Below are positions 29,101 to 35,881 of a stretch of DNA of 64,000 nt, in pieces (the first letter of the stretch is position 1; each line of letters opens with the position of its first letter). A program made the position numbers and the translations under genes. The stretch is from positions 1 through 64,000 of the forward strand of contig JBHOSQ010000005.1 in the NCBI GenBank assembly GCA_042584585.1, written 5' to 3'. This DNA comes from an archaeon. GTDB taxonomy: Archaea; B1Sed10-29; WALL01. Under the pieces are notes generated by a model. That model made no database searches, had not been told where the DNA came from, and saw only the letters and a list, made by a program, of their open reading frames with translations.

Positions 29101-30683
29101 AGTTTATTGTTGTTACCGGCGGAGTGCTGAGCGGATTGGGGAAGGGCATCGTCACCAGCTCAATCGGCAAGATATTGGAGTCACGTGGCTACAAAGTCAT
29201 GCCAGTCAAGTTTGACGGCTACCTGAACGTCGACGCTGGCACCATGAACCCATACCGCCACGGCGAAGTCTTTGTCCTCGACGACGGCACCGAGTGCGAC
29301 ATGGACCTCGGGAACTACGAGCGATTCCTCAACATCACAGCGGTCCGCGCCAACAACCCGACGGGCGGAAAAATATTCGAGAAAGTCCTTGCCAAGGAGC
29401 GCAAGGGCGAATACTTGGGCGTGGACGTCCAGTTCATCCCCCACGTCACAGGCGAAATCAAGGACTGGGTGCGCGGCGTCGGCAAGGACACGGGCGCCGA
29501 CGTAATCGTCATCGAGGTCGGCGGCACGGTCGGCGACATCGAAAACTCGTATTTCATTGAAGCAATGCGTGAACTCCACCAGGAAGAAGGGCACGAAAAC
29601 GTCGTGTTCTGCCACGTCACCCTCGTGCCCAAGCTGAAGGTAGTCGGCGAGCAGAAGACCAAGCCCACACAGCAAAGCATAAAACAATTGTTGGGAATGG
29701 GTGTGCAGCCCGACTTCGTGCTGTGCAGGTGCGACGAGCCACTCGACGACAGCCCACGCGAAAAAATCGCGCTGTTCGGGAACGTTAAACCCGAAAACGT
29801 CATTTCGGACCACGACTGCGACACAATCTACGAAGTGCCGTTCGTCCTCGAGAGTGATGACTTGGGCGACAAGCTGCTGAAGCGCCTGGAGATGGAGGTC
29901 AGGCCACCGTCGCTTTTGGACTGGCGCGCCATGGTCGACAACATCAAAAACCCGGAGAAAGAAATCACGGTCGCAATCACCGGAAAGTACACTGCGCTCA
30001 AGGACTCGTACGTCTCGATAATGGAGGCGCTCACCCACGCGGGCGCGCACCACCACACCAAAATAAACCTGGTATGGGTCGAGACCACCAACATCGAGGA
30101 CAAAAAGATAACCGTTGAAAAAGCACTGGAGGGAGTGGACGGAATCATCGTGCCCGGTGGCTTCGGGAGCAGGGGCACGGAAGGAAAAATCGCGTGCGTC
30201 AAGTACTGCCGCGAGAACAACATTCCTTACCTTGGCTTGTGCTACGGATTCCAAATGGCGGTCATTGACGCGGCGAGGAACATGTGCGGCCTCGAGGGCG
30301 CGAACTCGACAGAGGCAGACCCCAAGAGCCCCCACCCCGTAATCACAATCCTCCCGGACTCCGCCGGAGACCTCGGCGGGACCATGCGGCTCGGCGCGTA
30401 CGAGGCGCTTCTGAAGAAGGGCTCGCGTGTCGCCGAACTGTACGGCAAGACAAAAGTAAGCGAGCGCCACCGCCACCGCTATGAAGTCAACCCGGACTAC
30501 ATCGAAAAAATCGAGGCGGGCGGGCTCGTGTTTTCCGGCCGTTCCGAGGACGGGCGGCTCATGGAGTTCCTTGAGCTTCCGGACCACAAGTTCTTCATTG
30601 GGACACAGGCGCACCCCGAGTTCAAGACGCACCTCGAGGAGCCGGCGCCGCTGTTCTATGGATTCGTCGGTGCCTGTTTATGA
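29097..30683 (+). CDS. pyrG: CTP synthase
   Basis: 'TGGVLSGLGKG', 'HGEVFV', 'GGFGSRG', 'GLCYG', 'ERHRHRYE', 'HPEF'. Confidence 0.98.
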   Translation: MKFIVVTGGVLSGLGKGIVTSSIGKILESRGYKVMPVKFDGYLNVDAGTMNPYRHGEVFVLDDGTECDMDLGNYERFLNITAVRANNPTGGKIFEKVLAKERKGEYLGVDVQFIPHVTGEIKDWVRGVGKDTGADVIVIEVGGTVGDIENSYFIEAMRELHQEEGHENVVFCHVTLVPKLKVVGEQKTKPTQQSIKQLLGMGVQPDFVLCRCDEPLDDSPREKIALFGNVKPENVISDHDCDTIYEVPFVLESDDLGDKLLKRLEMEVRPPSLLDWRAMVDNIKNPEKEITVAITGKYTALKDSYVSIMEALTHAGAHHHTKINLVWVETTNIEDKKITVEKALEGVDGIIVPGGFGSRGTEGKIACVKYCRENNIPYLGLCYGFQMAVIDAARNMCGLEGANSTEADPKSPHPVITILPDSAGDLGGTMRLGAYEALLKKGSRVAELYGKTKVSERHRHRYEVNPDYIEKIEAGGLVFSGRSEDGRLMEFLELPDHKFFIGTQAHPEFKTHLEEPAPLFYGFVGACL

Positions 30684-32716
30684 GAATCATCGTGGCAGAA
30701 AAAGCGATTGCGGCGAAGCGTATCGCCGAAATACTTGGGTCGAAGGCACCCAAGCCAATCCGCGAGGGAAGGACCACGGTCTACGACATCGGGAACGACA
30801 CAGTTGTAATCGCGATGAGTGGCCACGTGCTGAACGTGGACTATCCCAAGGCCTACAACAACTGGCGCGCGGTGAACCTGCGCCAGCTCGTGAACGCGCC
30901 GCTGCGTTACGAGGCGTCCATGCCGTCCATCGTGACTGCACTGAAAAAGTACGGCAAAAACGCTGACCTAATCACGATTGCCACGGACTACGACACAGAG
31001 GGCGAGTCCATCGGCCGCGAGGCATTGACGATAATCAACAAGAAAACAATCAAGGTCAACCGCGCCCACTTTTCTGCCATCACTCCTGAAGAGGTCCGCC
31101 ACGCGTTTGACAATCTTGTCCCGCTCGACTACAACTTGGCGGACTCTGCGGACTGCCGCAGGGAAGTCGACTTGATTTGGGGCGCTGTACTGACGCGCTA
31201 CGTTTCATTGGCCGCCGCGCGCCTGGGCAAAGACTTCTTGTCCGTGGGCCGGGTGCAGACCCCGACCCTCGCATTAATCGTTGACCGCGAGAAAGAGCGC
31301 CGCGCCTTCAAGGCAACGCCTTACTGGGAAATGCTGGCGGTCTTCAACAAGGGCAAGGACTTCGAGGCGTCGCATTCCACTGGCCGCTTCACTGCCGAGC
31401 CCAAGGAGCTTTTCGAGCGCCTCAAAAAAGAAAAAGAGGGCACGGTCAAGGACGTCAGCAAGAAAAAGAAGAACTTGTTCCCGCCAACGCCGTTCAACAC
31501 GACGGAATTCCTTCGTTCCGCCAGCTCAATAGGCGTCGACCCGTCGAGGGCAATGGTTATCGCCGAGTCGCTTTACACGTCCGGGTTCATCAGCTATCCC
31601 CGAACCGACAACACTGTTTTCCCGGAGTCAATCCAGCTCAAGAAAATCACCGAATCGTTTCTGGGTGGAGAGTTCGACAAGGACGCGAAGCTCGTGCTTG
31701 CCCAAAAGAAGCTTGTCCCAACGAAAGGCAAGAAAAAGACGACCGACCACCCGCCTATCCACCCGGTGGCTCCCGCTTCAAGCAAAGTGCTTCCCTCGGA
31801 CCAGTGGAAGGTCTACGAATTAATCGTCCGCAGGTTCTTTTCGACGATGCTCCCGAAATGCGAGCTGGACACCGTGCGCGCTCTCATTGAAGTTACGGGC
31901 GAGGACTTCGTGGCGAACGGCCAGACCATCCGCTCGCCCGGCTGGAAAGCAGTTTACACTTATTCCAAGACGAAGGAAGTCGAGCTCCCGCCTTTGGCGA
32001 AGGGTGACGTGGTGAAGCTGAAGGACTTGAGTTTGCTTGCAAAGGAGACCCAGCCACCGAAGCTTTACACTCCGTCCGCGCTCATCAAGGCGCTGGAGGA
32101 CAAAAACCTCGGCACCAAGTCGACGAGGCCCGAGATAATCCGCAAGCTCGTGAGCAGGAACTATATCCGTGGCACCAAGAACTACGAGCCGACTGAAGTC
32201 GCGTTCGCAGTAATCAGTGTCCTTGAGAAAGTGGCCTCGGACATCACGAGCCCGAAAATGACTTCTAAGCTGGAAAAAGAGATGGAACTCATCGGTGCTG
32301 GCGAGAAAAAGAAGCCTGATGTGGTTGATGCCTCGCGGAAGATGCTTGACACCATCATGGATGAGCTGACGCGCGGCCACGACGAAATCAGCAAGTCGCT
32401 GCGTGGCGCGGTCGCGGACGTGAACACAGTTGGAAAGTGTGAGTGCAGTGGTGACTTGCGCATCATTACTTCCCGGGCGTCCGGAAAGCGCTTTGTGGGG
32501 TGCTCGCGATACAGCGAGGGATGCCGTGTGTCGTACCCGTTGCCGCAAAAAGGAAAAGTGATTCCATTGGGCACGGTGTGCGAGCCGTGTGGCACTCCGA
32601 GGATAAAGGTCTTGAACGGGCGCCGCAGTTACGAGATGTGCATCGACATGAACTGCGAGACCAAGAAGGACTGGGGAAAGAAAAAAGAAAAGAAGAAAGA
32701 AACGAAGGCTAAATGA
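30680..32716 (+). CDS. topA: Type IA DNA topoisomerase
   Basis: 'AEK', TOPRIM 'ATDYDTEGE', 'GRVQTP', catalytic 'ISYPRT', C-terminal Zn ribbon. Confidence 0.96.
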   Translation: MRIIVAEKAIAAKRIAEILGSKAPKPIREGRTTVYDIGNDTVVIAMSGHVLNVDYPKAYNNWRAVNLRQLVNAPLRYEASMPSIVTALKKYGKNADLITIATDYDTEGESIGREALTIINKKTIKVNRAHFSAITPEEVRHAFDNLVPLDYNLADSADCRREVDLIWGAVLTRYVSLAAARLGKDFLSVGRVQTPTLALIVDREKERRAFKATPYWEMLAVFNKGKDFEASHSTGRFTAEPKELFERLKKEKEGTVKDVSKKKKNLFPPTPFNTTEFLRSASSIGVDPSRAMVIAESLYTSGFISYPRTDNTVFPESIQLKKITESFLGGEFDKDAKLVLAQKKLVPTKGKKKTTDHPPIHPVAPASSKVLPSDQWKVYELIVRRFFSTMLPKCELDTVRALIEVTGEDFVANGQTIRSPGWKAVYTYSKTKEVELPPLAKGDVVKLKDLSLLAKETQPPKLYTPSALIKALEDKNLGTKSTRPEIIRKLVSRNYIRGTKNYEPTEVAFAVISVLEKVASDITSPKMTSKLEKEMELIGAGEKKKPDVVDASRKMLDTIMDELTRGHDEISKSLRGAVADVNTVGKCECSGDLRIITSRASGKRFVGCSRYSEGCRVSYPLPQKGKVIPLGTVCEPCGTPRIKVLNGRRSYEMCIDMNCETKKDWGKKKEKKKETKAK

Positions 32717-33185
32717 CTTTTATTTTGTGCGTTTCTTTTAGCGTTTTGAATCCAACCATTCCGAGCCCACGGCCGTTTCCTTCGCCAAGGGCTTTCGCGA
32801 CTTTTTTTATTACATGTGTGTACTCGTCTCGGTCCTTCACGCGGAACTTTATCAAGTAGTCCCATTCGCCAGAGATGAAGAACACTTCGAGCACTTCAGG
32901 AATTGCAGCCAGCAGTTTGGGGATGTCCTCGACAAGATCCAGGTCTTTTCTGAGTGGCACACGGCCAAGGGTAAACGCCACAAACCCTCTGCCTGTTTTC
33001 TCTGGGTCAACGGTTGCGCTAAGCCCAGTAACATATCCTTCACGCACGAGCTTGTCTATCTTTGTCTTCACTGTTGAAGTCGGCAGCCCAAGCTTGTGCG
33101 CCAACATTGTGACCCTTGGGACACATGCATCGTCTTTCTGCAGCAGGTTCAAAAGCTTCTTGTCCTCTGCTTTAAGCGCCTTCAT
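32709..33185 (-). CDS. Lrp/AsnC family transcriptional regulator
   Basis: N-terminal HTH 'LAHKLGLPTSTV...L..G', RAM domain 'IPEVLEVFFISGEWDYLIK'. Confidence 0.92.
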   Translation of the reverse strand: MKALKAEDKKLLNLLQKDDACVPRVTMLAHKLGLPTSTVKTKIDKLVREGYVTGLSATVDPEKTGRGFVAFTLGRVPLRKDLDLVEDIPKLLAAIPEVLEVFFISGEWDYLIKFRVKDRDEYTHVIKKVAKALGEGNGRGLGMVGFKTLKETHKIKVI

Positions 33186-33280
33186 TACGTATGGTATGCG
33201 GTTTTTTGCATATAAACCCGTATGTTTTACGTATATGGTTCGGGAATCTTCTTTTAAAACCCTTGCAATAACTATTCAGG
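33186..33280. promoter_or_regulatory. Divergent promoter region with repeated/palindromic elements
   Basis: TACGTA twice, ATGC-N8-GCAT, TATAAA and TTTTAAAA boxes. Confidence 0.45.
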
Positions 33281-33721
33281 ATGCGGGGCGTTATACTTGG
33301 CTGCAGAAAGTTCAAGTACACAGATACCCGCAAGTCCACTTGGCCGAAAGGGATTTTTCCCACTGCGTTTGGAAGCGGCGAGTTCCGTGATGCCATTGTG
33401 GTCTTGTCCTGCATAGAGAAAGGGGATAACATGGAGTACATTGAGTCTGCGGTGCAAAGGGTAGTGGAGCTGAACAATGCGTTCCACCGAAAGAAGAAAG
33501 TGGTAATCCTGCCTTTCGCGCACTTGTCGAACAAACTGGAGCACCCGCGCAAGGCTCTTCCGTTGTTGGTCCATTTCCAGGAGCGCCTTCAGGAAGAAGG
33601 GTTTTCGGTTGGCTCGGCGAGTTTCGGCACGGACAAGGACGCGTTGTTCGACATTCTTGGTCACCGCGCGAGTGTTTCGTACTTTGAATTTCCTTACAAT
33701 GGAAAGCAGGAAGTGGAATGA
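33281..33721 (+). CDS. Stand-alone archaeal ThrRS editing-domain (DTD-like fold) protein
   Basis: 'CIEKGD', 'ILPFAHLS', 'GFSV..A.FG..K', 'GH' match the archaeal ThrRS N-terminal editing domain. Confidence 0.88.
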   Translation: MRGVILGCRKFKYTDTRKSTWPKGIFPTAFGSGEFRDAIVVLSCIEKGDNMEYIESAVQRVVELNNAFHRKKKVVILPFAHLSNKLEHPRKALPLLVHFQERLQEEGFSVGSASFGTDKDALFDILGHRASVSYFEFPYNGKQEVE

Positions 33722-34728
33722 TGGACGCACCCGTCTTGAAAGGATACATGTTCAGCAAGGAAGACATAGACCTGGCAGTGAGGGAGCAACACTTGTTGAT
33801 GCTCCTCCTCGCATTCAATACCGAATGTAATCTGGCGTGTCCTTTTTGTTTTACATCCCAAGGAAAAAAGAGTGCTGTTGAGCTAGCGGGTAAGGGCATT
33901 GGAGCTCAGCTTGTAGACCTTGCTCTTTTGAAGCAGTTGATTGACCAGGGGGGCGAACTGGGTGTTAAGTCGGTTTGCATTTGGGGCGAGGGCGAGCCGA
34001 TGCTTGACAAGAAAACCGTGTTCGAGCTCGTCGACTACGCCAACAGTAAGGGCATGACACCAGTGGTTTTCACGAACGGAACCTTTGTCGACGAACATAC
34101 TGCAAAGCAACTCTTTGAAAAGAATGTGTCTGTCGTCGGCAAGCTTTACAGCTTTGACCCGGCAGTGAACGAGGAGCTTACGGGCGGCAAGAGGCGTTAC
34201 AGCTACGTCGAATTCGCTGGCAGAAAAGTACCGTCCCATATAATGGCTTTGCTGGAGGCCGGCTTCGCAGGTACTAATCGTTTCGCGCTCCACACCGTGG
34301 TGACCACAAAAAACATTGGTGAACTCTCTACAGTGTGGAGGTGGGAACGGGAGCAAGGCATAATCCCGTTCATGGACTTCTTGTACATGCCTAACCCTAG
34401 CCTGGACCTGGGAGTCGAAGAGCGGGTGAAGCTACAGAAACAAATCTGGGAACTTGACAAGGGGTTGGGCTTTGACTATGGCCTCACCATAGGGCCCGCA
34501 CTTGGCCCAAGGAAGTGTGACACGCGGGCATCCCTCTTTGTTGGCGCGCATGGGATAGCGCGCGTCTGTGGAGCAACTTACAGGTTTCTGGGCGACACGC
34601 GGACCACGCCACTAAAGCAGATAATCCAACGGAAGCAGGAGGTTGACGCGGGTCTTTGCAGGGGGACAGAAAAAGGCTGCGTCTTCTGTGACTGCTACTT
34701 ATATAATCAAGAGAAGGTGAAAAAATGA
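33718..34728 (+). CDS. Radical SAM protein with C-terminal Cys-rich (SPASM/twitch-like) domain
   Basis: CNLACPFC, 'GEGEP', 'FTNG', C-terminal C..VC..LGD..C..CVFCDC. Confidence 0.9.
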   Translation: MMDAPVLKGYMFSKEDIDLAVREQHLLMLLLAFNTECNLACPFCFTSQGKKSAVELAGKGIGAQLVDLALLKQLIDQGGELGVKSVCIWGEGEPMLDKKTVFELVDYANSKGMTPVVFTNGTFVDEHTAKQLFEKNVSVVGKLYSFDPAVNEELTGGKRRYSYVEFAGRKVPSHIMALLEAGFAGTNRFALHTVVTTKNIGELSTVWRWEREQGIIPFMDFLYMPNPSLDLGVEERVKLQKQIWELDKGLGFDYGLTIGPALGPRKCDTRASLFVGAHGIARVCGATYRFLGDTRTTPLKQIIQRKQEVDAGLCRGTEKGCVFCDCYLYNQEKVKK

Positions 34729-35123
34729 AAATTCCTGAAGAAGCAAAAAAACTTTTTGATGCCCAGGACATTGTGGCGTTCGGCACTGCCGACGCGAATG
34801 GCGTGCCCAACGTGTGCGCTGTGTTCTGGAAGACCGTAACTGCTGAGGACACTATCCTGATATTGGACAATTTTTTCAAGCAGACGAAGCAAAACCTCGC
34901 GGAAAACAGTGAAGTATGTATCTCTTTTTGGGACACTTCAACAGAAGAGGGGTACAAACTCAAAGGCACTGCAACTTACCACACTAAAGGCCAGGTGTTC
35001 GAGCAAGGACAGGCGTGGATGCAGTCCAAAAAGCCCGGGCGCGTTCCACGGGGTGTTGTCGAAGTAAAAGTCAACCAGGTCTTTGTCATCACTCCGGGCG
35101 AACACGCAGGCGAGCTGTTATAA
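34725..35123 (+). CDS. Pyridoxamine 5'-phosphate oxidase-like FMN-binding split-barrel protein
   Basis: 'GTADANGVPN', 'DNFFKQTKQNL.EN', 'GYKLKG', 'TPG.HAG'. Confidence 0.88.
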   Translation: MKIPEEAKKLFDAQDIVAFGTADANGVPNVCAVFWKTVTAEDTILILDNFFKQTKQNLAENSEVCISFWDTSTEEGYKLKGTATYHTKGQVFEQGQAWMQSKKPGRVPRGVVEVKVNQVFVITPGEHAGELL

Positions 35124-35155
35124 CTTTTTATACTGCCCCGCGAATAACTCCGTTG

Positions 35156-35881
35156 ATGGAAATCGAGCTGGACTTGAAGAAGTCCTTGCACGAGAACGCG
35201 GGCGACTACTACGACCGCGCGAAGAAGCTGAAGAAAAAAGCCGCGGGCGCGCGCGAAGCGCTCGAGGCAAGCAAGCGCGAGCTGGAGAAAGCCCAAGAAA
35301 CCGAAAAGCCCACCACGCTCGAGAAAAAGCGAAAGCGCGACTGGTTCGAAAAATACCACTGGCTCAAGACCACCAACGGCTTTTTGGTTGTCGCTGGCCG
35401 CGACGCCAAAAGCAACGAAGCTGTCGTCAAGCGCCAAATGAAAAAAGACGACTTGTTCTTCCATGCCGACATACAAGGCGCGGCAGTCACAATCCTAATC
35501 GACGGGCAAAAAGCCAAGAAACAAGACCGCGAGGACGCAGCAAAACTAGCCGCAGTCTTTTCAAAGGCATGGGGTGCGGGCGTCGGCTCAATCAACGTCT
35601 ACTCAGTCAAGCCAGACCAAGTCAAGACCGCAGCCAAAGCAGGCGAATCTTTGGCAAAGGGCTCTTTTGTCATGGAAGGCAAGCGCGAGTGGTTCAAGAG
35701 CGTCCCACTAGAAATCTTCGCTGTTTTTGACGGGTTTCCAGCGGTTTCCGCGACCCAAGGCATCCGCATCACCCCCGGAAAAACCAAGAAAAGCGACCTA
35801 GCCAAAAAGCTCAGGGCAAAGTTCGGCGGCACACTCGACGACTGGATGCTCGTCCTCCCCAGCGGGGGTGACATGAAGTGA
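35156..35881 (+). CDS. NFACT-R (DUF814) domain protein, short Rqc2/RqcH homologue
   Basis: 'NAGDYYDRAKKLKKK', 'WFEKYHW', 'GRDAKSNE', 'HADIQGA', 'SKAW', 'KGSF..G.R'. Confidence 0.88.
   Translation: MEIELDLKKSLHENAGDYYDRAKKLKKKAAGAREALEASKRELEKAQETEKPTTLEKKRKRDWFEKYHWLKTTNGFLVVAGRDAKSNEAVVKRQMKKDDLFFHADIQGAAVTILIDGQKAKKQDREDAAKLAAVFSKAWGAGVGSINVYSVKPDQVKTAAKAGESLAKGSFVMEGKREWFKSVPLEIFAVFDGFPAVSATQGIRITPGKTKKSDLAKKLRAKFGGTLDDWMLVLPSGGDMK

Follow-up and report, generated by a model that had tools for sequence, protein, structure and literature searches.

A free-standing threonyl-tRNA editing domain recurrently joined to S-adenosylmethionine-dependent enzymes in DPANN archaea

We have analysed a stretch of 64,000 nucleotides (positions 1 to 64,000 of contig JBHOSQ010000005.1, assembly GCA_042584585.1; henceforth the window) from an archaeon whose genome assembly (G000) amounts to 1.02 Mb in 32 contigs and is 84% complete. 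Between topA (30680-32716) and an NFACT-R gene, the window holds a block of four genes which includes a free-standing, diverged paralog of the domain that carries out editing in archaeal threonyl-tRNA synthetase (ThrRS), here named ED-P, and a radical S-adenosylmethionine (SAM) enzyme, here named rSAM. The block begins with a regulator of the Lrp/AsnC family on the minus strand (32709..33185; 158 amino acids (aa); Pfam AsnC_trans_reg, 42.8 bits, and HTH_24), which is transcribed divergently from the ED-P and rSAM genes and is separated from ED-P by a control region of 95 bp (33186..33280). On the plus strand there follow ED-P (33281..33721; 146 aa; PF08915 tRNA-Thr_ED, 70.5 bits), rSAM with a twitch/SPASM-like C-terminal domain (33718..34728; 336 aa; PF04055, 47.5 bits), and a PNPOx-like protein of the flavin mononucleotide (FMN) barrel type (34725..35123; 132 aa; PNPOx_N, 58.7 bits). 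An earlier note on this DNA, made from its letters, had placed four genes at these positions, and each of them was recovered as an open reading frame (ORF) with a clear Pfam match. The ATGA junctions which it had described are borne out by the sequence, one joining the ED-P stop to the rSAM start and the other the rSAM stop to the PNPOx start, and its statements that the block contains no synthetase catalytic domain and no obvious precursor peptide also stand, the latter for the ORFs of at least 50 aa in the window, among which no precursor-like small ORF was seen within the block. Its description of the block as AT-richer is correct in direction, as the GC content is 0.47-0.55 over 32600-35199, 0.53-0.61 upstream and 0.53-0.56 downstream, but the difference is only modest.

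The assignment of ED-P to the family of ThrRS editing domains is clear at the sequence level. Its match to PF08915 covers profile positions 1-129 of 137 and lies well above the cut-off of 30.2 bits, a search of the PDB returned the N-terminal domain of Pyrococcus abyssi ThrRS (2hl1_A, E 1.5e-9), and both of the motifs earlier read as intact are present, viz. PFAHLS (P78-F79-A80-H81) and FGTDK (K119). An alignment of nine ED-P sequences with two canonical editing domains showed that E46, D49, P78, H81, F115, G116, K119 and G127 are invariant across all 11 sequences, and that the P78-F-A-H81 block is likewise kept in all of them. The pair of pocket residues before the Lys, in contrast, is T/S117 followed by D/H118 in all nine ED-P sequences (T117 and D118 in the window) and Trp/Tyr followed by Tyr/Asn in the canonical domains, and the column of the canonical cross-subunit Glu is occupied by Val, Ala or Asn in the nine ED-P sequences (V132 in the window). 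In the work of Ahmad et al. (2015; PMC4491819) on the canonical domain, Pro80, Phe81, Ala82, His83, Tyr120, Lys121 and Glu134' are reported to lie within 6 Å of the scissile bond; the K121M variant is severely compromised, whereas Y120A and E134A retain activity, so that these two residues are dispensable. The same work describes the 2'-OH of tRNA A76 as the catalyst and the terminal adenosine as the target of the conserved contacts of the fold. ED-P thus appears, from its aligned residues, to retain what is needed to hold and hydrolyse an aminoacyl-adenosine ester while the residues of its amino-acid pocket are changed, and these changes may alter its specificity. An AlphaFold2 (AF2) model of ED-P built from 7 sequences (predicted local distance difference test (pLDDT) 56.8) was too poor for pocket inspection or for a fold search. 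Because ED-P passes the sequence tests of the ThrRS editing family but fails its pocket and architecture features, it is classed here as a branch of its own, made up of free-standing proteins, within the DTD-like fold.

The protein consists of the PF08915 domain only, without a ThrRS catalytic or anticodon-binding part, and its relationship to the ThrRS of its host is therefore of interest. The host ThrRS (C29:681-2414, on contig C29; locus L001) was found to possess its own PF08915 domain (160 bits) in addition to the catalytic and anticodon-binding domains, and the sister genomes G025 and G026 each contain, besides ED-P, an intact single-ORF ThrRS with a PF08915 domain. Hence, ED-P represents an extra, diverged paralog and not the routine partner of an editing-less synthetase, a role which the earlier note had named as one of two results that would count against its proposal and which does not apply to the host genome. 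The host ThrRS gene contains one in-frame TGA (codon 213), located between the editing domain and the catalytic core; as this codon is absent from the G025 and G026 orthologues, it probably reflects a defect of the assembly or of the strain. With the NCBIfam model for ThrRS, the proteins of the host genus reach only ~200 and 150-170 bits in two pieces, far below the 815 bits of the G023 protein.

The second plus-strand gene, rSAM, encodes a radical SAM enzyme (cut-off of PF04055, 29.5 bits) with the motif CNLACPFC (CX3CX2C), the cysteines of which (C37, C41 and C44) are invariant in 15 sequences. In the C-terminal part, C267, C284 and C324, and only these three, are invariant in the rSAM family, which would fit a single, twitch-like auxiliary cluster. 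The label SPASM-like given to the enzyme in the earlier note is apt insofar as SPASM and twitch enzymes are both its nearest solved folds and its nearest sequence matches and insofar as three C-terminal cysteines are invariant, but it does not extend to the Pfam SPASM family (PF13186), which gives no match in the window rSAM and, among the nine orthologue ORFs scanned, only weak matches in L064 and L065. An AF2 model of rSAM (pLDDT 89.6) retrieved anSME, SkfB, TigE, MoaA and viperin as fold neighbours (template modelling (TM) scores 0.53-0.64), and these generic SPASM/twitch neighbours name no substrate. With the characterised enzymes of this kind (viz. anSME, SkfB, TigE, CteB, SuiB, MoaA, BtrN and viperin), rSAM shares the CX3CX2C core and a C-terminal, Cys-bearing auxiliary-cluster domain; it differs from them in its low identity (9-19%, TM 0.49-0.64), in having three rather than seven conserved auxiliary cysteines, and in lacking a precursor peptide in the window. 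No named characterised subfamily was found for it, as 45 NCBIfam models match and none approaches its cut-off, the best being NirJ2 with 56 bits against 500. The predicted complex of rSAM with ED-P scored 0.00, which gives no verdict and is used neither way.

The family of rSAM is also rare. A word-indexed search of 5.77 billion clusters yielded 16 rSAM proteins including the query, and an exhaustive profile search of 1.84 billion representatives yielded 7 with at least 327 bits, the next one following after a gap at 215 bits; the wider SPASM family around rSAM comprises 204 representatives at E < 1e-30. Of the 31 species-level genomes of the host phylum, the host itself is the sole one to contain rSAM. 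An orthologue is present in one of the 371 genomes from the phylum of locus L009 (from an Aenigmatarchaeota metagenome-assembled genome) and in none of the 401 sampled genomes of a third DPANN-type phylum. Ten orthologous loci on genome and metagenome contigs (L009 and L059-L067; 37-59% identity) were obtained with the rSAM alignment as query; a single-protein query gave no genome-contig match.

The central result of our analyses is that ED-P recurs, in separate lineages, together with SAM-dependent enzymes. The ED-P profile was found in 3 of the 31 genomes of the host phylum, which are all three species of the host genus (G000, G025 and G026), in 1 of 371 Aenigmatarchaeota genomes (G062) and in 1 of 401 genomes of the third phylum (G452); three further stand-alone ED-P proteins (P0018-P0020) are of metagenomic origin. 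Six ED-P architectures were counted (viz. those of the window, P0007, G025, G026, G062 and G452), and in four of these, namely the window, P0007, G025 and G452, a SAM-dependent enzyme is coupled to ED-P. In the window the coupling consists of the ATGA overlap with rSAM, with Lrp divergent from both. P0007 is a metagenome protein of 502 aa in which an N-terminal ED-P is fused directly to an orthologous rSAM (53% identity), and in G025 a 380-aa ORF, which is divergent from an AsnC-type regulator with a double helix-turn-helix (HTH), joins ED-P through a Pro/Ala-rich linker to a class I methyltransferase (Methyltransf_25), for which the only family hint is the SAM-binding motif of KsgA/Erm-type enzymes (E ~5e-6). 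In G452, an AsnC/Lrp regulator, a radical SAM/SPASM enzyme, a paralogous radical SAM/SPASM enzyme, ED-P (with an ATGA overlap), a ThiF-family enzyme and a NUDIX protein follow one another; the two radical SAM enzymes are non-orthologous to the window rSAM (hhalign 92%, core region only), a SAM synthetase gene lies 4 kb from the operon, and scans for tRNA and Rfam elements around it gave no match. No recognisable SAM enzyme adjoins ED-P in G026, where Lrp is divergent from ED-P followed by PNPOx and rSAM was not found, or in G062, where ED-P stands alone after PolB. The link between the editing domain and a radical SAM enzyme, which the earlier note had drawn from the window, is strengthened by the fusion in P0007 and by this second, non-orthologous operon in another phylum, and a functional tie of ED-P to SAM-dependent tailoring enzymes is, in our assessment, quite probable.

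Two further observations concern the genomes in which ED-P lacks such a neighbour. In G026, a 271-aa gene (L104:2793-3608) located downstream of Lrp has no Pfam or NCBIfam match and contains a GxGxG-like motif; an Atlas feature search (0.90) gave a weak lead to class I methyltransferases, and no similarity to the methyltransferase domain of G025 was detected. If this gene does encode a methyltransferase, ED-P would have a SAM-dependent partner in each of the three species of the genus. The genome of G062 contains three ThrRS-like genes (L114-L116), two of which are bacterial-type (TGS, SAD and core), the third being a 497-aa archaeal-like gene without an editing domain.

The regulator of the window possesses both domains of its family, the N-terminal winged HTH (HTH_24, residues 8-53) and the C-terminal ligand-binding (RAM) domain (AsnC_trans_reg, residues 85-128). 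An Lrp gene is located divergently upstream of the orthologous rSAM in 6 of the 10 other loci (viz. L009, L060, L061, L062, L063 and L066, of which L061 and L062 are near-identical to each other), and the window Lrp is 52-55% identical to these rSAM-paired regulators and 92% identical to that of G026. Two palindromic boxes were recognised in the control region, CGTATGGTATGCG at 33188-33200 and CGTATGTTTTACG at 33219-33231, together with a weaker third box at ~33229-33241. The boxes flank a TATA-like element, GCATATAAA (33207-33215), which is read as that of the Lrp gene, and a second such element, TTTTAAAA (33252-33259), lies ~25 nt ahead of the ATG of ED-P; both promoter assignments, and the short or absent (leaderless) leaders that they would entail, are predictions. 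The pattern CGTATNNNATACG, with at most one mismatch, has 2 matches in the 64-kb window against 0.5 expected, and both are situated in the 95-bp intergenic region, which is 96% identical to its G026 counterpart. The predicted operator thus lies in the promoter region of Lrp itself. A pair of CGTAT-N3-ATACG boxes also flanks a TATA-like element near the Lrp start in L009, L060, L062 and L066, and the operator of L063 is a GC-shifted variant of these boxes. As the same boxes are found beside Lrp in several rSAM loci, the regulator, operator and rSAM travel together across loci that are ~55% identical, in agreement with the control by Lrp that had been proposed for the block. Regulators of the AsnC/Lrp type also adjoin ED-P in four of the five loci for which DNA is available (window, G026, G025 and G452).

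The fourth gene of the block has a different history. The PNPOx protein matches PF01243 well above its cut-off of 28.1 bits and is not PdxH (TIGR00558, 17.6 against a cut-off of 180). Homologues of it are present in 9 of the 31 genomes of the host phylum, as opposed to 1 of 31 for rSAM. In G022, a member of the same family, PNPOx abuts topA, and the gene order in G026 is topA, the 271-aa gene, Lrp (92% identical), ED-P (90%), PNPOx (87%) and NFACT, without rSAM and with ED-P and PNPOx 62 bp apart. These orders indicate that rSAM sits, or was lost, exactly between ED-P and PNPOx. A PNPOx homologue was observed in only 1 of the 10 orthologous rSAM loci (L064), where it is 3 kb away and on the other strand. 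Although PNPOx is probably co-transcribed with rSAM in the window, we regard it, on this comparative evidence, as a resident neighbour of topA and not as a conserved member of the system. The proposal that the three plus-strand genes form one unit in which the flavoprotein supplies electrons is consequently not upheld: the triple of editing domain, radical SAM enzyme and PNPOx recurs in none of the 10 other rSAM loci and none of the 4 other ED-P loci with DNA, and PNPOx is rejected as a conserved partner of rSAM on its distribution in the phylum, the orders in G022 and G026 and the rSAM loci, so that the electron-donor role is left without comparative support.

Several relatives of rSAM are accompanied by genes related to tRNA. 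In L067, which belongs to a bacterial-looking sister clade in the tree, a peptidyl-tRNA hydrolase (Pth) gene ends 4 nt upstream of rSAM and a CysRS gene is next door, and a HisRS gene neighbours the rSAM relative in L083. In L068 (1838-8333), a distant radical SAM/SPASM relative (29% identity) forms a row with the genes for a class I LysRS-like protein (927 aa), a protein of 421 aa and a FemAB-like protein, and a MarR regulator gene adjoins it. FemAB-type enzymes take aminoacyl-tRNA as donor, and the row looks like an aminoacyl-tRNA-using cluster. The protein P0043, a member of the wider rSAM family (176 bits), carries at its C-terminus a PF04073 domain, the YbaK-type aminoacyl-tRNA editing domain. 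P0043 is far from the core rSAM clade, in the other main branch of the tree, and it represents a convergent fusion with an unrelated tRNA-deacylase fold.

The functional unit at this locus consists of the Lrp/AsnC regulator, ED-P and rSAM. The explanation of it that we favour, at a probability of about 0.4, is that ED-P is a trans-acting deacylase which guards tRNA against the amino-acid product of its partner enzyme. The regulator would bind the CGTAT-N3-ATACG boxes, two or three in number, that lie between the divergent promoters and would set both its own expression and that of the transcript carrying ED-P and rSAM (and PNPOx), probably in response to an amino-acid-like ligand, as its family suggests. 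By means of its CX3CX2C cluster and one auxiliary cluster, rSAM would act on an amino acid, or on a small substrate derived from one, and modify it, and ED-P would strip the resulting non-canonical product from tRNA that a synthetase has mischarged with it, so that the product is kept out of proteins. In other lineages, the same guard domain would be paired or fused with other SAM-dependent tailoring enzymes. In G000, G025 and G026, a stand-alone ED-P exists next to a ThrRS that has an editing domain of its own, as would be expected of a guard working beside housekeeping editing.

A number of observations weigh against this explanation. Most of the orthologous rSAM loci are without ED-P: it is absent from all 10 of the other loci, tblastn gave 0 matches in the 22 loci searched, and it was not found in the genome from which L009 derives. 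ED-P in turn occurs in G026 and G062 with no recognisable SAM enzyme adjoining, and since the radical SAM enzymes of G452 are only distantly related to that of the window, the partner of ED-P would be a class of enzyme and not one family. In the genomes of G062 and G452, ED-P is the sole PF08915 match and could therefore be an ordinary trans-editing partner there. A single tailoring enzyme does not make a pathway; no multi-gene pathway accompanies ED-P, and neither a transporter nor any additional pathway gene is conserved. A resistance role also does not predict the fusion of guard and enzyme, and the guard deacylases known to us are separate proteins. The guard role proposed for ED-P draws on sequence and gene context.

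Of the other explanations, one holds that the chemistry takes place on the tRNA itself, rSAM (or, in G025, the methyltransferase) modifying the aminoacyl group while tRNA carries it as an ester. ED-P would then take the CCA end and either clear unconverted or wrong species or release the finished amino acid. The fusions in P0007 and G025 speak for this, as they copy the architecture of ThrRS with the editing domain N-terminal and a catalytic domain after it, as do P0043, in which a radical SAM/SPASM enzyme is joined to a YbaK-type editing domain, and the Pth, CysRS, LysRS-like, FemAB-like and HisRS neighbours described above. A precedent for this domain in a tRNA-dependent pathway is provided by Mukai et al. 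(mBio 2017; PMC5424206), in whose work tRNA-Thr-ED genes are coupled with SepCysS and the ThrRS editing domain forms the N-terminal part of a SepRS homologue. However, the neighbours are in part to be expected in DPANN and candidate phyla radiation (CPR) genomes, which are rich in translation genes, most of the orthologous rSAM loci have no ED-P, and ED-P keeps its hydrolysis residues and would thus destroy the substrate. A literature search, with most subscription journals outside its scope, found no description of a radical SAM enzyme linked to an aminoacyl-tRNA editing domain, and we know of no radical SAM enzyme that acts on aminoacyl-tRNA. Chemistry on tRNA, together with the role at the CCA end that it would give to ED-P, is therefore rather unlikely in our view, and we would be still more hesitant to describe ED-P and its SAM-dependent partners as a tRNA-dependent amino-acid modification machine in which ED-P proofreads or releases the product, although this would, if true, be the first radical SAM chemistry on aminoacyl-tRNA and would open a way to a non-standard residue or metabolite in organisms with next to no amino-acid synthesis. 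It is likewise improbable, and more so, that ED-P is a further trans-editing factor of the ordinary kind, whose target is tRNA(Thr) or a near neighbour, acting for example on Ser or Ala attached to tRNA(Thr), and that its neighbours merely reflect a variable spot in the genome. The cargo between topA and NFACT does differ among G022, G023, G024, G025 and G026, ED-P is alone in G062 and without rSAM in G026, no ThrRS-borne archaeal editing domain was found in G062 or G452, and housekeeping free-standing members of the fold exist in DTD and ATD (Kuncha et al., Nat Commun 2018; PMC5802732). On the other hand, chance would hardly produce both two independent fusions with SAM-dependent enzymes and, in different phyla, two operons with translational coupling. 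An intact cis-acting editing domain is also present in the genus in which ED-P occurs, and the pocket residues of ED-P are consistently unlike those of the canonical domains.

The remaining two possibilities are far less probable. One of them, which we consider very unlikely, takes ED-P off tRNA altogether and makes it a module that binds or hydrolyses a small molecule, one which contains adenosine and is connected with SAM turnover. The partners of ED-P, viz. a twitch-type radical SAM enzyme, other SPASM radical SAM enzymes and a class I methyltransferase, indeed share only the use of SAM, a SAM synthetase gene is close to the G452 operon, and the conserved contacts of the fold are those to the terminal adenosine (PMC4491819). 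Against it, SAM carries its amino acid on C5' and not as a 3' ester, and the His and Lys of the ester site are retained in ED-P; the idea is moreover pure deduction, and we know of no precedent for it. The other, which we rate lowest of all, has ED-P proofread the phosphoserine (Sep) route to Cys-tRNA by removing the Ser-tRNA(Cys) that arises when Sep-tRNA(Cys) loses its phosphate, as has been proposed for stand-alone tRNA-Thr-ED genes of methanogens (PMC5424206). The host does possess a SepRS-like gene (C27:24-1253; L117; TIGR00470, 185 bits, E 2e-54), which is below the cut-off and cut by the contig end, and such a gene is present in all three ED-P genomes of the genus. It is also present, however, in 8 of the 31 genomes including G023, G024, G016 and G017, which have no ED-P, while G062 has ED-P and no SepRS match. 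SepCysS was not found in the host genome, the sole weak match being a SufS-type cysteine desulfurase gene beside a NifS-type one, and no gene for SepRS, SepCysS or tRNA(Cys) is adjacent to ED-P in the islet.

The idea of a deacylase as guard, and the existence of small tRNA-Thr-ED genes, are already published. Millar et al. (Nat Chem 2026; PMC13149037) describe deacylases that are specific for non-canonical amino acids made by the host, sit in the corresponding biosynthetic clusters and protect the proteome, their examples being BesG of the AlaX family, a fluorothreonyl-tRNA deacylase and a canavanyl-tRNA deacylase; an extended-data legend of that paper also lists an AlaX neighbourhood with a radical SAM enzyme. 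The ED-P system resembles these clusters in that a free-standing relative of an editing domain lies beside tailoring enzymes, that the housekeeping synthetase keeps its own editing, and that the neighbours fall outside the classical classes of natural-product enzymes. It differs from the systems reported there in its fold, which is that of the DTD-like ThrRS N-terminal domain and not AlaX, YbaK-type or B3/B4, in its hosts, which are DPANN archaea with genomes of ~1 Mb and not actinomycetes and the like, in having one or two tailoring genes with the guard fused to the enzyme in two lineages, and in being known here from genes alone. The terms "archaea", "DTD" and "YbaK" do not occur in the main text of that paper.

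Mukai et al. (PMC5424206) report small, stand-alone tRNA-Thr-ED genes coupled to clade VII SepCysS, and ED-P is similar to these as a PF08915-only or fused domain recruited to enzymes that change amino acids, with the functions being proposed in both cases. The genes reported there belong to methanogens and MSBL1 and accompany SepCysS, tRNA(Cys) and sulfur genes, whereas ED-P is set apart by its hosts, which are DPANN archaea, and by its partners, viz. radical SAM enzymes, a methyltransferase and regulators of the AsnC type. With the archaeal ThrRS editing domain itself (PabNTD; 2hl1/1y2q), ED-P shares PF08915, PFAH and the active-site Lys, and like the crenarchaeal ThrRS-ED protein (PMC5424206) it is proposed to act in trans. 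Unlike either of them, it is a 146-aa protein that has no catalytic or anticodon-binding domain and coexists with a complete ThrRS in its genus, and in place of the canonical Trp/Tyr119, Tyr120 and Glu134 of the ThrRS domain it has Thr/Ser, Asp/His and Val/Ala, respectively. DTD and ATD, which together with NTD are the named branches of the DTD-like fold (PMC5802732), are also free-standing proteins of the same fold and clear specific mischarged tRNAs, but they are described there with SQFTL or PQATL motifs and Gly-Pro motifs, whereas ED-P is archaeal, has PFAHLS and lacks Gly-Pro. The ED-P clade, its pairing with radical SAM enzymes and the fusions were not found in the literature covered by our search. 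The statement of the earlier note that no operon of such composition had been described therefore stands for the pairing of ED-P with rSAM, but not for the underlying idea of a guard deacylase.

Taken together, tRNA-editing domains have been joined to SAM-dependent enzymes repeatedly and by convergence, which is unusual and can be tested directly, and the pairing of ED-P with such enzymes points to amino-acid chemistry that can reach tRNA. If ED-P does act as a guard, the rule that a deacylase marks amino-acid chemistry would come to cover a fourth deacylase fold and also the DPANN archaea, which are regarded as having hardly any biosynthesis, and it would offer a handle on a rare radical SAM clade that has no known substrate. 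The fusions (viz. ED-P with rSAM, ED-P with a methyltransferase, and a radical SAM enzyme with a YbaK-type domain) would then provide a test bed for SAM enzymes working on or near aminoacyl-tRNA. Even under a conservative reading, ED-P would represent a distinct DTD-like branch with a consistently altered pocket, which is useful for studies of proofreading specificity.

Some further features of the neighbouring genes were recorded. The gap between topA and NFACT (32717-35155 in the window; L104-L108) is a variable spot in the host family, and its cargo consists of PNPOx only in G022, of an ORF for a 235-aa membrane-like protein in G023, of an HTH/LAGLIDADG-like gene and a GNAT gene in G024, of DUF211, VIT1, the double AsnC regulator and the ED-P-methyltransferase in G025, and of the 271-aa gene, Lrp, ED-P and PNPOx in G026. 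Downstream of rSAM, two of the orthologous loci (L009 and L062) contain a gene for a Cys-rich protein of 117/118 aa followed by AroD. The Cys-rich ORFs (L009:2331-2684 and L062:7014-7370) are 42% identical to each other and belong to no Pfam family, that of L062 has an ATGA overlap with rSAM, and the protein could be a substrate or a metal-binding partner of the enzyme. No homologue of it was found in the host genome, and hence none in the window, which eliminates it as the substrate peptide of the window system. In L064, a PhzF-like gene precedes rSAM and overlaps it. Among seven Aenigmatarchaeota loci with distant radical SAM/SPASM relatives, a class I methyltransferase gene is located directly upstream and overlapping in five (L082, L083, L084, L086 and L087), and the methyltransferase of at least L082 carries a Trm112-like zinc ribbon; a comparison of these methyltransferases with that of G025 revealed no BLAST similarity. 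The rSAM relative of L088 has a double-HTH AsnC regulator divergent from it. Lastly, three members of the wider radical SAM/SPASM family (P0089, P0110 and P0129; 1135-1383 aa) are fused to GAF domains, with SIR2 in addition in P0089 and TIR in P0129, an architecture that looks like one of defence or signalling.

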